This document shows positions 12,879 through 20,854 of a stretch of DNA of 20,854 bases, piece by piece. The notes beneath the pieces are model-generated. The model searched no databases. It saw only the letters and a list, made by a program, of their open reading frames with translations, and was not told where the DNA came from. The stretch is taken from the UHGV virus genome UHGV-0059920. The stretch is one strand, 5' to 3'. The first letter of the stretch is position 1. Each line of letters opens with the position of its first letter. The position numbers and the translations under genes were made by a program. Origin of the DNA: a virus.

Positions 12879-13598
12879 TTAGCCAAAGCAGAAACCAATA
12901 TTGCAATTTGAAACTCCACAGTTGTGAAATTGATGTGGACCTACTCTTAGCTTGTGTTCGTCTCCTACAATCCGAGTCCCCTTAACCAACATATCTAATC
13001 TTTCCACAATCAATCTTTCAGGCGCATCAACTTTAATAATTAAACGAGGACCTTTCCTTTTTTCTATAATAGTTATTCTAGGACCGACAACCTGAACATC
13101 CCAATGCCTTGCACTACAAACCCACTCATTCTTAATTAATTCAAGATTAACAATACCTTGACTATCGTAAAATTTACCCGAAATAAGAAAAGCATTATTT
13201 TCTTTTTCAATGGTTAACAATGGCTCATTTTGAAACATTATTGGTACAGTACAGGATTCAAACGTCGCACCACCAAATATTATTGTTGGATGCCTATCAG
13301 AAAAGTCCAATATATCGGCCACATTCCCTTTTTGTAAGGCTGCAGGAGATTCCATTGCTTTAATTATTTTCTCTTTAGAGTAAAGACGTTTCGTTACTTT
13401 CGCATGGCACGTAGGACAAAGTAGTGCTATTGCATTTGGAGAGTGCTCCTTTGCATCAGCGTATGTGGGAATTACATGCTCATACTCAACAATGGGAGAA
13501 GCACAAACAACGCAACCGAAGCCACAGCGCTGCCTTACCTCCAGTTTTACAGGTTCAGGAATTGTTCTAGATAACCCATGCTTGTTAATAGTTGTCAT
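12879..13598 (-). CDS. HNH (His-Me finger) nuclease-domain protein with an unrecognised C-terminal domain of about 170 aa; candidate defence or exclusion cargo
   Basis: N-terminal motif RCGFGCVVC...EYEHVIP...SPNAIALLCPTCHAK has the spacing of a zinc-bound HNH core (CxxC, EH, N, CxxCH). AAGGTAAGG RBS upstream; visibly AT-rich. It sits where P2 carries old/tin. Confidence 0.7.
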   Translation of the reverse strand: MTTINKHGLSRTIPEPVKLEVRQRCGFGCVVCASPIVEYEHVIPTYADAKEHSPNAIALLCPTCHAKVTKRLYSKEKIIKAMESPAALQKGNVADILDFSDRHPTIIFGGATFESCTVPIMFQNEPLLTIEKENNAFLISGKFYDSQGIVNLELIKNEWVCSARHWDVQVVGPRITIIEKRKGPRLIIKVDAPERLIVERLDMLVKGTRIVGDEHKLRVGPHQFHNCGVSNCNIGFCFG

Positions 13599-13964: not shown

Positions 13965-14153
13965 TCAGCTGATGACATCCATTGAGCGGTTGTATTCGTG
14001 GGTTCTGATTTTTGCCATGAGTTCATCTGTCAGTTCAGAAACCCACTGCAAAGCCAGCCCCTTCTCTTCATCACTACACTCACTAGCCGCTACAAGTTTA
14101 AGAAAAAAATCAATGCGCTGGAGCTTCAAAGACTCCAAAAAATAGTCCTGCAT
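13965..14153 (-). CDS. Small hypothetical protein (62 aa), first gene after the LexA box
   Basis: ATG at 14153 preceded by AGGAGGAAAG. Ends 10 nt before the DinI-like start, in a different frame. Confidence 0.5.
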   Translation of the reverse strand: MQDYFLESLKLQRIDFFLKLVAASECSDEEKGLALQWVSELTDELMAKIRTHEYNRSMDVIS

Positions 14154-14194: not shown

Positions 14195-14237
14195 CACTGT
14201 TTATATTTACAGTATATAATAATCTTACTGATGTAAA
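14195..14237 (-). promoter_or_regulatory. LexA (SOS) box overlapping a sigma70-like promoter for the small-ORF/DinI-like operon
   Basis: CTGT-ttatattt-ACAG at 14197-14212; as a 20-mer on the minus strand it reads TACTGTAAATATAAACAGTG against consensus TACTGTATATATATACAGTA. Minus-strand -35 TTTACA (14232-14237) and -10 TATACT (14211-14216) with a 15-nt spacer. Confidence 0.6.
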
Positions 14238-14306: not shown

Positions 14307-16679
14307 TTAATACAGGTTTCGCCACTTATCATCTTCCTGCAAACGCTGGTTCCGATAGAAGATACGCAGGCCTGCTCCTGACGGAATACTGCCGCCGCGA
14401 AGGAGTAAATCGACCTCTTTCTCGCTGCCATCAAATCCTCTGGACTTCAGTTCATAGACGAGCTGCTGTCGCTGATGGTCTGTAATTCGCTGTTTGTAGT
14501 CTTTACGCCGTTTCGGTTTCACCAGGCGTAACCTTGCAGCTAGTTCCCGGCGCTCTTTTTTGCTCATACTGTGCAGGTAATCGTGCAACGCCTTGTCATC
14601 CATGCGGGTAATGTCCGTCCTGGTATCCCCATCAGCTGATTTGTCTTTCCCTTGTTGGTTCAAATTTTCAGCAAGGGGACAGTTATTGCCACGAGTCCAA
14701 GGGGCGCAAGCGCCCTGGTCGGCTGCCGCCTCCTGAACATCAACGGCCTTACGAACCATTTTCCACTTCACGGCATGAGTGCAGATCTTGCCCTCTGCAA
14801 TAGGTGACCAGATGCCATAAATACGAATGCCGTGATCGCCATAGGCGGTCGGCTCTTCGTTGATTTCATAAGCGGTTCTGATGAGGTGATATTTGCGGGG
14901 AACCAGTACGCCGCCCTGCTTCATGATGTAGGTGGCAAAACAACCAGCATCAGCAGCAGCCAGGATGGCATCAAGGCGCGGGTTATCCAGTACCGGCGCA
15001 CCTGCTTTTTTGTCCCCCTGTTGCCTTGCCGCCTGACCAGCCAGCAATCGCAGTTCACGGTAAGCCTGACGCCCCGGAATGCCAAAGAAGCGGAATTGCT
15101 GAACACGATGCAGAGACGCCCAGGCATTAACGTATTCAGCATTATCACGCAGGGATTTCCCCGTTTCCTTGCTGATCTCGCCAGCCAGACCACGCCCGTC
15201 AATGTTCTTACTGATGTATTTCGCGATGTAGCTTGTTGGCGTACCTTTGCGCGGGTTAATCAACTCAGACTTAAAGCGCGGCCCAGTGTTATTGCCCAGT
15301 TCCTCGCGGTCTTCACGGATGGCAAACTTACGCAGTAATGCAGTGATGGCGCGGCGGTCTTTTTTGCGCATAAAACACAACAGGTGCCAGTGAACTGTAC
15401 CGTCATGATGCGGCTCAGCCACCCGCACGCCATACCACCGCAATCCGGCTTTGTGCATCGCCTTACGAAATGCAGCAAACATGCCGACCAGATAATCACT
15501 GCTTTGTCTTACCGTCGCATTTGTCCAAGTTGGGTTGGGCCTGCCATTATTTAGCGTGGAATGGAAACGTGACGGACAGGTGATGGTGTAGAAAACGGCG
15601 CAGTCACCGCGCATTTCCGCGATAAGCTCCAGGCCTTTAACACAGGCCATCATCTCATTGCGGCGATGCGCAGGGTTGCTGCTGCTGGCGTTTACCACAT
15701 CCTCCATGTCCAGCGTGTCGCCGTCTTCGTTCACCAGTTCATGAGAACGAAAAAACTCCAGCGACTTACGGCGCTGCTCACGTTTATGCATCACGGCTTC
15801 ATAGCTGACATAGGGAGATGCTTTTTTGCTGACCAGGCAGACAGCACGCAACTGCTCTTCCCGCCATTCGCAACGCATCTTCCATAATTTCCGGTACCAC
15901 CAGTCAGCGCACAACATACGCGCCAGCGAACCCGGAATGAGTTCATAGGGCACGGGTTTACGGCGGTTTCTTTTCCGGCGGAGTTGCTCAAACGCAGGCG
16001 GGATGACATCCAGACGCAGGGTTTCCGCTGCCACCTTTTCCCATGTCTTGCGGATTTCTTCTGGCTTAACGTCATCGGTGACATACAAATCGCCACAAGC
16101 TGCATCAAGGCACATGCTCATATGCGCAGCTACCAGGGTGGACAGGCGTTTCACCTGATCCTGACTCATTTCAGGCAGGATCAGCAGGCCGTCCAGCCCT
16201 TCATGGCTTGCCATAAAGCGAAAAGAAGTGGATAGCTGACAGTCGCGTACATGCTCCAGCCGTTCCAGACATGGCTTAATCGTCTCACGCAAATAGCGGG
16301 AATAAGCCTTTGGCCTGCCCAGGCTGCTGAAGTATTCAATACGTTGCATCAGTGGCTTGCTGATATGGGAAGGCTGGGCATTAACGTCCGCCAGAATGAC
16401 CATATCTGGATTAAAACGCTGCTGCTCATGCGCCAGCTTTGCCCGACTAATGAGCTTATCCTGCTCCATTTCGCGCTGGACAGGATCACGGGATTCATTA
16501 AAGAAATAACGCTCCCAGACCTGATCACTCAGTGCCTCGCGGCGCAGCTGTTCCTGCTCGTTATCGGCAGCGTACAGAGCGATCAGGTTTGAAAGCGCAG
16601 AAACTGAAGATTGCTCTTCCGTCTCTACGTAAGGATTGATTGCTTTTTTCTCAGCATTCCAGGAATAGCTGTAGTTCAT
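14307..16679 (-). CDS. A: Replication initiator endonuclease A (rolling-circle nickase)
   Basis: About 790 aa with HxH metal motif ([11 protein letters not shown]) and the active-site tyrosine region ([12 protein letters not shown]). Start taken as ATG at 16679, overlapping the upstream stop (TAATG); the ORF-track start at 16730 is a TTG. Confidence 0.9.
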
Positions 16680-17500
16680 TACGCAATCTCCAGTTCGAGC
16701 TGTGAAGGCTGCAAACCATTCGACAGCCAATCAGAAACTGAAGGTGGGCGAACAGCTTCAATTGCACCTTTTAAAATTGCGCAACGGTTTTTCAGAATGA
16801 CAGCTTTCAGCTCCTTTTCCGTCAGATTGCGCGAATACTCAGCCTCCTGAATAGCCCGCGTCAGCTCAGGATATTTGCTATTAAATTTGGGGACATTGCA
16901 GGCAAGATTTGTACTGTCGGCAGTCGCCAGTGGGTAATTTCCCAACACACGACCGTCAAGCATGCGCAAACCATGAACAGCTGTTTTGAAATTGTGTCGG
17001 CAATAAATTGCTTCAAAAGCGTCCTGCATACGACGATGCCAGTGCGCAGTTCTGATAGCCGCATATTCACCAGACGATCCAAAGCAGACACGAGGCCATT
17101 CACGACATAGCTCGATAAGCCGATCGATTGACTCGTGCAGATGCCAGACGGGAGTTGCCTTCCCGTAGAACATTTTCGGAACTTCGTTTATCAGGGCATC
17201 ATTGTCACGTTCACCTCCGTCCACAACATCAGGAATGACAAAAAAAGCGACCTTAGGATGGTGGTAATAGTTCAGGAGCCATTTATAAAAATCACTCCAG
17301 TTAATTTTTAGCCCACGCACCCATGCAGAAAATGCGCCGTTATCAATGCCGACGACCTGAGCGTGCTGAATGGACGCCGCAATCTGATCTGGTCGTACAT
17401 AGGAGACGAAAGCGCCAGCTCCGCTCACCGCAATACGATGAACGTCGCCAGCACTTCCCCAGACAGGCGTCCCATGGAAATGATGAATTCCGTGGTGCAT
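16679..17500 (-). CDS. Hypothetical protein of about 273 aa, translationally coupled between dam and A
   Basis: ATG at 17500, 5 nt after the Dam stop; its own stop overlaps the A start. No motif I can assign by eye. Confidence 0.6.
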
Positions 17501-17505
17501 TTCTT

Positions 17506-18360
17506 TCACACTTGCACCCCGAAAATAACAGTAGAGTCACGTCCCCTACTAAAATCGGCACTAAACCAATTAGCAGATTTAGTGGCAATCATCTCTGTTG
17601 CAAATTTTCCCTCCCCCGCTGCAACGCCGATGCTGCGTTTCGCCCTGATGTAGTGGTGAGTGAAATTACGATAAAGGGACCGGGTCAAAGACGTGTTACT
17701 GTTAGAAACAATGACCGGATGTCCTTCTGATGACCGATGTTCAAGAATGGATGCCAGGTGATACTGATCATCTTCAGTGAAACCATCAGTGTGATAGCCG
17801 GAAAACGTACCGTCATAAGGCGGATCGCAATACACCACATCCCCCACCTTCAACATCGCCAGCGTTTCATCAAAGCTGGCGCAGATAAACGTTGCCCGCT
17901 GGGCTTTCTCTGCAAATGCGCGAATTTCTTTTTCAGGGAAATACGGATTTTTATAATTACCGTAGGGAATGTTGAAATGCCCGCTCTTGTTATAGCGACA
18001 TAAACCACGGTAACCGTGACGATTGAGATACAGGAAATATACCGCTTTCATGAAATCAGTAATTTCAGTGGAGTAATTAAACTCCTGCCTTATGTTGTAA
18101 TAAGCCACCTCCCTGTTTGCTTCCTCAAATAAAGCTCTGGCACGAGATATAAACGCCTCACAATCAGCAGCAACCTTTTTATAGAGGTTGATTAAATCAG
18201 GATTAATATCCGCAACAAGATAGCTGGGGTAATCCGTCTCCATCATCACTGCACAGGAACCCGCGAAAGGTTCAACCAGTCGCGGGCCAGCAGGAAGATG
18301 CTTTTTCAGTTCGGACATTATGGCGGTTTTATTTCCTGCCCATTTCAGGATGGTGCTCAT
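17506..18360 (-). CDS. dam: DNA adenine methyltransferase, Dam-like
   Basis: Motifs KWAGNK, EPFAGS and DPPY; ATG at 18360 with GGAGGTG upstream (the ORF-track start at 18420 is a TTG). Confidence 0.85.
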
Positions 18361-19226: not shown

Positions 19227-19390
19227 TTGTTCCCCCGTTTTTTCGTAGATAGTTCTGCCAGCAATTCATCTTGTGAACGGCACGGATGCCAGCGTTTACC
19301 ATCCTCACCCATGATCCAGCCGTGACCGTAGTGCATTGCCGGACTTTGTTTTACCAGCAGCGATGCAAATGATGGTTCTTTCGTCAGCAT
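19190..19390 (-). CDS. Small hypothetical early protein (about 66 aa)
   Basis: ATG at 19390 with GAGGTG upstream, immediately after the B stop. Confidence 0.45.
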   Translation of the reverse strand: MLTKEPSFASLLVKQSPAMHYGHGWIMGEDGKRWHPCRSQDELLAELSTKKRGNKWLLKALRRLFH

Positions 19391-19907: not shown

Positions 19908-19939
19908 AGTCAGCCCCTTCCCTTTATTTCAAAATCGAA

Positions 19940-20161
19940 TCAATTGATTACGACATTGGAATCGGCAAGCGCATCCACTGTCATGGCTGCAATGTTGATC
20001 ATTACCTTTTCACGTTTTTTATCCTTGCGAAGACGATGCCGCTTAAGGCGTCCATCTGCGAGCATACTGTTGATAGTGTCTACAGATAACCCTGTGAGTT
20101 CACTGTACTTTTCAACCGAAATGGATGGGACAGCTAATGTGATTGAAATGTGCTGAGTCAT
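19940..20161 (-). CDS. Cox/Apl-like small helix-turn-helix protein (lytic-side switch regulator/excisionase)
   Basis: 73 aa, first gene of the early leftward operon, divergent from the repressor; HTH-like segment VEKYSELTGLSVDTINSMLADGRL. Confidence 0.65.
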   Translation of the reverse strand: MTQHISITLAVPSISVEKYSELTGLSVDTINSMLADGRLKRHRLRKDKKREKVMINIAAMTVDALADSNVVIN

Positions 20162-20233
20162 AAGGCAACATCTCCTGTTTAAGTGTGTTTAACATTGACG
20201 AGTAGTTGTAAGTCACATTTTGAAATCAATGCG

Positions 20234-20262
20234 ACTATAAGATCACAAATTGAAATCGTCAA
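20234..20262 (-). promoter_or_regulatory. Early lytic promoter (Pe/pR-like) for the Cox/Apl-B-A operon
   Basis: Minus strand TTGACG-17 nt-TATAGT (-35 at 20257-20262, -10 at 20234-20239) in the repressor/Cox intergenic region. Confidence 0.55.
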
Positions 20263-20287
20263 CCATAAAGTTCACAAGGTGAAATCG

Positions 20288-20854
20288 ATGGATTTTAGTC
20301 AAGGTGGAAAGAAAGCTATCGAAAGGATGGTTGAAGCCTATGGGTTCACTACAAGACAGGCGTTATGTGAACAACTAGGCATATCAAAAAGCAGTCTTGC
20401 TACACGCTACATGAGAGATTCATTCCCTTCTGATTGGGTTATTCAGTGCGCGCTCGAAACAGGAGTAAACATAAAGTGGCTGGTAACAGGCTTACCTCCT
20501 AAACATGAATATTTAACGTCTGACATCATCAATATTCAAAAAATAAAATTGATTGATGGAGTGCTATTGGATGCAGGAACACTAATGTTTGACAAAGTGT
20601 TCATTCCTGATGGTTTATCATCACCATCTGTGATATCAAACGGGAATAACTCTTATTTTATTGAGAGGGATTTCACAGATGTAGTTGATGGTGATTGGTT
20701 AATCTCCATTGATGGAAAGCATTCTATAAAACAAGTTATTAGAATTCCTGATAATAAAGTTAAGATTAACTATGGGAATATCATTGTTGATATGAACATT
20801 AATGACCTTGTATTCATCGGCAAAGTTATAGCAGAATTCAAGATAAGAGGCTAA
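20288..20854 (+). CDS. cI: CI-type immunity repressor (186-like, no obvious LexA-like autocleavage motif)
   Basis: Start refined to ATG at 20288 with AAGGTG upstream; about 188 aa. Segments EAYGF and CALETGVNIKWLVTG resemble 186 CI as recalled; no S24 peptidase motif seen. Ends with TAA at the window edge. Confidence 0.78.
   Translation: MDFSQGGKKAIERMVEAYGFTTRQALCEQLGISKSSLATRYMRDSFPSDWVIQCALETGVNIKWLVTGLPPKHEYLTSDIINIQKIKLIDGVLLDAGTLMFDKVFIPDGLSSPSVISNGNNSYFIERDFTDVVDGDWLISIDGKHSIKQVIRIPDNKVKINYGNIIVDMNINDLVFIGKVIAEFKIRG

Follow-up and report, generated by a model that had tools for sequence, protein, structure and literature searches.

A probable 186-type lysis–lysogeny switch with three predicted CI operators about 30 bp apart in an Escherichia coli prophage

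Organization of the Locus

The window considered here is the whole stretch of virus genome UHGV-0059920 that was analysed, 20,854 nucleotides in length. Near its end a 126-bp interval (20162–20287) separates two divergent genes, a cox-like gene on the minus strand and cI on the plus strand. The features of this interval, of the genes that flank it, and of a second regulatory module downstream of gene A are collected in Table 1.

Table 1. Positions of genes, promoters and predicted or candidate regulatory sites in the window
Feature	Position	Strand	Description
DinI-like protein, 77 aa	13721–13954	−	Pfam DinI, 1.3e-22
62-aa ORF	13965–14153	−	First gene after LexA box; candidate antirepressor; phrog_698, function unknown
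LexA box	14197–14212		Perfect, CTGTTTATATTTACAG; only zero-mismatch match in window
cII, 169 aa	19398–19907	−	186-type establishment activator; Pfam Phage_CP76; right after first lytic gene
Cox-like excisionase/repressor, 73 aa	19940–20161	−	First gene of pR operon; phrog_575, E 3.6e-26
pL, predicted lysogenic promoter for cI	20143–20171	+	TTGAAA (20143–20148), 17-nt spacer, CAACAT (20166–20171)
GTTTAA pair, candidate Cox-binding array	20177–20192	+	Copies at 20177 and 20187, 10 bp apart, between pL and pR
O1, predicted CI operator, 17 bp	20211–20227	+	AGTCACATTTTGAAATC; 22.4 bits; covers about +1 to +17 of pR
pR, early lytic promoter	20234–20262	−	TTGACG (20262–20257), 17-nt spacer, TATAGT (20239–20234)
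O2, predicted CI operator, 17 bp	20241–20257	+	GATCACAAATTGAAATC; 24.0 bits; occupies pR −10/−35 spacer
O3, predicted CI operator, 17 bp	20270–20286	+	GTTCACAAGGTGAAATC; 25.4 bits; directly upstream of pR −35
cI, 186-type immunity repressor, 188 aa	20288–20854	+	Pfam Phage_CI_repr (1e-28) and Phage_CI_C (1.7e-26)

The repressor combines a helix-turn-helix N-terminal domain (Phage_CI_repr) with an oligomerisation domain (Phage_CI_C). It is 29% identical to 186 CI and matches the structure of that protein (PDB 2FJR) over residues 10–184 with an E value of 4e-24, and a Pfam search found no S24 peptidase (self-cleavage) domain in it. Judged by these matches, CI is a true homologue of 186 CI. An earlier sequence-only reading of this DNA had described a long repressor of about 188 aa that resembles 186 CI and has no LexA-like cleavage motif; the domain searches bear out both parts of that description.

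The same reading had drawn attention to a minus-strand promoter, TTGACG-17-TATAGT. It is indeed present, and its hexamers match 10 of the 12 consensus positions in a promoter consensus scan. Both hexamers are kept in an alignment of relatives, and the promoter is positionally equivalent to the annotated pR of 186. The lysogenic promoter pL, which fell under the threshold of the scan, is predicted from positional homology with 186 and from the invariance of both of its hexamers in 10 aligned relatives. Its −10 hexamer begins 5 nt past the cox ATG, the same offset as that of 186 pL (TTGCGA-17-CATGAT) past the apl ATG. The predicted pL faces pR, the two start sites being about 50 bp apart. The GTTTAA pair that lies between the promoters is semi-conserved in relatives (L009 has GTTTAG and GTTTAT), and it is a candidate for Cox-type sites by comparison with the seven Apl sites that the 186 GenBank record places between pR and pL. 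Among the ten sequences with the CI recognition helix SKSSLATRYMRDSF or SKSTLATRYMRDSF, the stretch between pL and O1 is freely variable.

Downstream of pR lies the operon cox-cII-fil-…-dam-…-A, whose minus-strand genes encode, in order, the Cox-like protein, CII, Fil, DUF5347 and DUF2732 proteins, a TraR/DksA zinc-finger protein, a Dam methylase, a Tgt-like protein and the rolling-circle replicase A. This order matches that of the 186 lytic operon and differs from that of P2. Aligned along its whole length of 169 residues, CII shows 69% identity to its 186 counterpart. For the A protein the identity is 35% with 186 A and 31% with P2 A, and comparison with the P2 map found no homologue of P2 B among the operon ORFs. 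The description of these genes as a Cox/Apl-B-A operon of P2 type with P2-like replication genes, and of the prophage as a P2/186 mosaic, must therefore be abandoned: CII and Fil are present, B is missing, and A has no particular affinity to P2 as against 186. The one element that leans toward P2 is the Cox-like first gene. Its product has weak similarity to P2 Cox (E 3e-4) and none to 186 Apl by BLASTP. Both Cox and Apl belong to the recombination directionality factors (RDFs), a class of excisionases; here a Cox-family RDF holds the position of Apl and presumably has the same role.

Within the operon, a minus-strand ORF of 276 aa (16679–17509) matches phrog_887, 'queuine tRNA-ribosyltransferase', with an E value of 2.4e-96 and has no Pfam match. 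It adjoins the phage Dam methylase gene (17509–18360) and may be a DNA-modification gene.

Three Repeat Units Across the Early Promoter

A motif search finds TGAAATC in the switch at 20221, 20251 and 20280. Of the three starts given in the sequence-only reading, the first two are exact and the third, placed at 20281, is one base off, so that the spacing is 30 and then 29 bp. The heptamer is the right half of a longer 17-bp unit, (G/A)nTCAC-N5-GAAATC, which occurs as O1, O2 and O3, all in one orientation, and is absent from the rest of the window. The pattern TCACANNNTGAAATC, in which 12 bases are specified, is matched perfectly three times and no more in the 20.8-kb window, always within 20213–20286, against a chance expectation of about 0.003 exact matches. 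A repeat search likewise returns a single family of three 20-nt copies with spacings of 30 and 29, and O1, O2 and O3 are the three best PWM scores in the window.

The heptamer by itself is much more widespread. It occurs 13 times in the whole window against 3.1 expected, a count that none of 100 shuffles reached. Ten copies lie outside the switch (63, 4117, 7346, 9602, 12314, 12568, 12797, 14862, 18051 and 20669), and in a PWM scan none of them scores as a full operator. Codon bias may be the cause of the excess.

The units interleave with the hexamers of pR in the order O3, −35, O2, −10, O1. O3 stops 2 nt short of the cI start codon, the unit ending at 20286 and the ATG lying at 20288, in agreement with the earlier placing of the last repeat directly before the repressor gene. 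The repeats had also been said to share one helical face. This is true only approximately, since 29–30 bp amounts to 2.8 turns at 10.5 bp/turn and to 2.9–3.0 turns at 10.0–10.2 bp/turn.

The first four bases of O2 are a Dam site, GATC (20241–20244), located one base upstream of the pR −10. Of 54 distinct switch variants, 48 have GATC at this position, regardless of operator sequence. Its presence shows no association with that of a phage Dam gene: 24 variants have both, 11 have GATC only, 4 have Dam only, and 2 have neither. The site may provide a link between methylation state and the activity of pR or the binding of CI.

Further operator-like sites were sought beyond O1–O3. A weak operator-like 17-mer, AGTCATAAGGCAACATC (4.3 bits), at 20156–20172 lies over the predicted pL −10 and the cox ATG, and its counterparts score 10.0 bits in L009 and 8.7 bits in L011. 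It is not significant alone, and may be a weak CI site through which pL is negatively autoregulated. The 17-bp distal operators FL and FR recorded in the GenBank entry of 186 lie about 300 bp either side of pR. Equivalents were searched for with a PWM derived from 19 distinct sites, for which the shuffled maximum is about 11 bits. No convincing site clearly exceeded that maximum in the window, where the candidates at 19925–19941 (8.3 bits) and 19946–19962 (7.5 bits) are weak, and some relatives carry 13-bit matches at the position equivalent to FR. The best match outside the switch (19262–19278, 13.5 bits) lies in fil and is without counterpart in relatives.

Covariation of the Units with CI

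This clade of 186-type prophages has at least 549 members related to the present one in IMG/VR. Two scans of that collection supplied about 95 loci, which represent 53–54 distinct upstream sequences. CI in these variants is 45–63% identical overall and about 80% identical in the N-terminal DNA-binding domain. When the sequences are aligned on the cI start, most of some 50 distinct variants display the order site, −35 (cGTCAA), site, −10, site, from which L068 clearly departs. O1 is nearly invariant among relatives. Whether the motif is conserved in related switches had been named as a check in the sequence-only reading; it is conserved, as TCAC…GAAATC at all three positions, in the ten sequences whose CI recognition helix is SKSSLATRYMRDSF or SKSTLATRYMRDSF.

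Variants with a near-exact match to either helix mostly carry TCAC…GAAATC, the exceptions being L021/L022 and the L054–L063 class. As a predictor of the right half, the recognition helix alone fails: L021 and the L054 class have the same helix and right halves of GTGAC type. In L021 these right halves correlate with replacement of T by K in the helix that comes before. Operator sequence does not follow from CI sequence by any simple code.

The sequence-only reading had offered two binders for the repeats, CI and the Cox/Apl-like protein, and a comparison of prophages that share a Cox protein separates them. L009 and L028 have Cox proteins that are 100% identical and CI recognition helices that differ (SKSTLATRY and SKGTLANRY, respectively). 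The right halves of the units are GAAATC in L009, and in L028 they are GTAGAC, GTTTAC and GTGATC. Likewise, L012 and L034 have 100% identical Cox and entirely different repeats. Because prophages with identical Cox but different CI DNA-binding domains have different repeats, the repeats track CI and not Cox.

The geometry of the units leads in the same direction. It might be supposed that the repeats are sites at which the Cox/Apl-like excisionase-repressor shuts off the lysogenic promoter, as do P2 Cox and 186 Apl, and the common orientation of the three units in the window fits that idea, since Cox and Apl bind direct repeats in the P2 and 186 switches (PMC7498355). Sites for RDFs, however, are about 6 bp long and 10–11 bp apart, Apl requiring at least three adjacent copies, whereas the units here are 17 bp long and recur at 30 bp. 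The units also lie over pR, whereas 186 Apl binds the interval between pR and pL, where the GTTTAA pair with its 10-bp period is the better candidate for Cox. In some relatives, moreover, the units at the same positions are palindromic, as are GTACCCAATTGGGTAC in vB_EcoM-813R9 and TGCAATTGCA in L027, or one of the three is inverted, as in L033 and L036. Such units are consistent with a dimeric helix-turn-helix protein; they are therefore likely to be self-contained dimer sites rather than obligate direct repeats. With identical Cox proteins accompanied by different repeats as well, binding of the units by Cox is very improbable. Thus the operator role proposed earlier stands with CI as the binder, and what had been called operator half-sites are the right halves of 17-bp operators.

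It is equally improbable that the repeats have no repressor role and instead reflect, for example, UP-like or spacer elements belonging to pR, ribosome binding at cI, or duplication of a segment. Such an origin could account for some of the conservation: the middle of O3, AAGGTGA, reads like a Shine-Dalgarno sequence for cI, so that conservation of O3 is partly confounded by the ribosome-binding site, O2 falls within the pR spacer, and its GATC is kept where the operators differ, so that some of the conservation owes nothing to the operator. But the same 12 specified bases recur in three promoter contexts: ahead of the −35, between the hexamers, and within the transcribed leader. The motif covaries with the CI N-terminal domain across relatives, whose promoter hexamers are constant, and the equivalent sites of 186 are experimentally defined CI operators (PMC3675496). 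Assignment of O1, O2 and O3 to CI, which draws on homology and covariation together, is the most likely interpretation.

An automated pair search over the classes with same-orientation units gives operator spacings that are mostly 30 or 58–60 bp, with 27 bp in the L033 class. The spacing is 29–30 bp in the motif class of this prophage and 27–32 bp in other classes. A spacing of about 30 bp is a rule of the clade, not an invariant.

Comparison with the Switches of 186 and P2

The layout has much in common with that of 186. In both phages a two-domain CI of the same Pfam families is encoded beside three 17-bp sites (predicted here) that run from the cI start over pR; in the GenBank record of 186, the three CI sites occupy 57 bp that begin with the cI start codon and extend over pR. 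The TTCAC half-site is common to the two. FL and FR of 186, ATTCACATTAAGTGAAG and ATTCACATAAAGTGAAT, have the form ATTCAC-N5-GTGAAG and ATTCAC-N5-GTGAAT, 17-mers that share the frame of O1–O3. In both, pR and pL (again predicted here) are face to face, the −10 of pL lies immediately beyond the ATG of the first lytic gene, cII and fil follow that gene, and a LexA-boxed module with a DinI/Tum-C homologue lies downstream of A.

The differences are also substantial. The pR operators of 186 are two DNA turns (20 bp) apart and are occupied by neighbouring dimers within a CI wheel of seven dimers (PMC3675496), whereas the operators here are 29–30 bp apart, or about three turns. They are asymmetric (TTCAC plus GAAATC), where 186 has inverted repeats of A or B type, and the pR hexamers sit in the gaps between them. 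CI is a distant relative at 29% identity, and the first lytic gene is of the Cox family with no detectable similarity to Apl. Two ORFs, the 62-aa one and the 77-aa DinI-like one, replace Tum; clear FL and FR operators were not found here; and the early operon includes genes for Dam and a Tgt-like protein in addition. Between cI and int, which abut in 186, there is a candidate defence pair. A three-turn register is not without precedent in the 186 literature. Wang et al. (2013) noted that it would be suited by the roughly 180 bp occupied per wheel, and set it aside over the distortion of DNA seen with the 32-bp spacing at 186 pB (PMC3675496).

Resemblance to the Pe-Pc switch of P2 is of a more general kind: convergent early and lysogenic promoters (pL being predicted here), same-orientation repeats around the early hexamers, and a Cox-family first gene that is closer to P2 Cox than to 186 Apl. 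One might accordingly take the repeats that flank the early −10 for O1/O2-style operators of a P2 C-type repressor in a P2-type operon, since the O1 and O2 direct repeats of P2 flank the Pe −10 (PMC1904268), a likeness that is superficial. P2 C is a 99-aa single-domain repressor that acts on two 8-bp direct repeats 22 bp apart, whereas the protein here is a 188-aa two-domain CI of 186 type with three sites at 30 bp. P2 is without CII, Fil and an SOS module and has a B gene (cox-orf78-B-…-A); the reverse is true here, and A is equally far from P2 and 186. A P2-type switch can hardly be credited at all, and the 186-type interpretation is retained in what follows.

Nilsson et al. (2011, PMC3448106) catalogued the regulatory regions of heteroimmune 186-type prophages, which fall into many immunity classes and have roughly 125 nt between cI and cox. 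The switches of vB_EcoM-813R9 and Klebsiella phage KP12 belong to the same CI-Cox-CII clade, have spacers of about 125 nt, and are arranged identically (site, −35, site, −10, site) with a spacing of about 30 bp. The operator sequence of vB_EcoM-813R9 given above differs from that of this prophage, so that its immunity is presumably different. Megablast of the switch DNA against 50,697 phage records gave no match, and the closest CI of a deposited phage found by tblastn is 47–51% identical. The kind of switch is thus already known, and what is new is its immunity type, no deposited phage having a CI above 47–51% identity. New also is the operator spacing of about three turns across the clade, as opposed to the two turns that underlie the 186 wheel model.

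A LexA-Boxed Module Downstream of A

The sequence-only reading had made induction of the prophage dependent on a LexA-controlled DinI-like module. That module does exist: a perfect LexA box is followed by the 62-aa ORF and then by a DinI/Tum-C homologue. The box lies inside a promoter-like, AT-rich stretch downstream of A, in a position equivalent to that of p95 and its LexA site in 186. The DinI-like ORF is 41% identical to residues 71–145 of 186 Tum, which form its C-terminal half, and Tum outside that half has no detectable homologue here. The 62-aa ORF has no similarity to 186 Tum and no NCBIfam family name.

Since a LexA box stands ahead of a Tum-C/DinI homologue, SOS-dependent antirepression is plausible. 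The 62-aa protein and the DinI-like protein would be the candidates for inactivating CI. Induction of this kind fits with the lack of a self-cleavage domain in CI. Downstream of the module, on the minus strand, an ORF of 239 aa with an HNH-endonuclease domain (12879–13598) takes the position of 186 orf97.

Copies in E. coli Genomes and the Neighbourhood of cI

Prophages that are at least 99.5% identical over 955 bp around the switch are present in 17 of 5,426 complete E. coli genomes. One of the 17 matches is on a 57-kb record counted as a plasmid, and the others are chromosomal. In strain RM10466 the prophage adjoins rcdA, and genes for an AAA ATPase and a DUF4276 protein come after cI, with the integrase gene next. 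H16 and H17 designate the pair of E. coli copies with the lowest identity. In the latter (L186, from E. coli ESBL 15), which is otherwise a near-identical copy, the annotated cI coding sequence is 507 bp long rather than 567 bp, and 4 bp are lost from the match; this suggests a change within the gene and a frameshifted or truncated repressor.

The AAA ATPase and DUF4276 genes lie just past the end of the window between cI and int (L001, 6957–8690), and their products match A and B of the PADLOC candidate defence pair HEC-01 with E values of 2e-154 and 6e-63. Downstream of int and outside the window, an unannotated ORF (L001, 9866–10240) consists almost entirely of tandem GPGGG(L/M)YT repeats. 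No clear array of Cox sites was found at the prophage att end of L001.

Proposed Operation of the Switch

Taken together, the evidence indicates, with a probability of roughly 85%, that the 126-bp interval is the lysis–lysogeny switch of a 186-type (Peduoviridae) E. coli prophage and that the repeats are three 17-bp operators for CI. Each operator comprises a left half of TTCAC type and, one DNA turn away, a GAAATC right half; the A-type operators FL and FR of 186 have this same TTCAC as their half-site.

If the switch operates as that of 186 does, CI dimers joined through their C-terminal oligomerisation domain would fill O1, O2 and O3 cooperatively and turn pR off. Cooperative binding by a wheel at a spacing of 29–30 bp is assumed here by analogy. 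Silencing of pR would lift convergent transcriptional interference on the weak pL, and pL, which overlaps the cox start, would then read across the operators into cI. Induction would originate in the LexA-controlled module, with the 62-aa ORF and the DinI/Tum-C-like protein supplying the antirepressor, and not in self-cleavage of CI.

Implications for the 186-Type Family

For annotation of the prophage the gain is mundane: the immunity region, pR, a predicted pL and a probable SOS-induction module are now placed. The clade as a whole offers a panel of heteroimmune pairs of CI and operator, some of them with identical Cox, that could be used to examine specificity or to obtain orthogonal repressor parts.

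To our knowledge, phage 186 is the only member of this family of switches in which the architecture of the repressor–DNA complex, a 14-mer wheel that wraps DNA, has been studied. The occurrence of three-turn CI operators across the clade raises the speculative and rather doubtful prospect that the oligomer wraps or bridges DNA in a register other than that of the 186 wheel, and that GATC methylation or replication state could tune pR or the binding of CI. The dozens of prophage variants with three predicted operators at about 30 bp would constitute a comparative test of the way in which operator spacing is read by the CI wheel.
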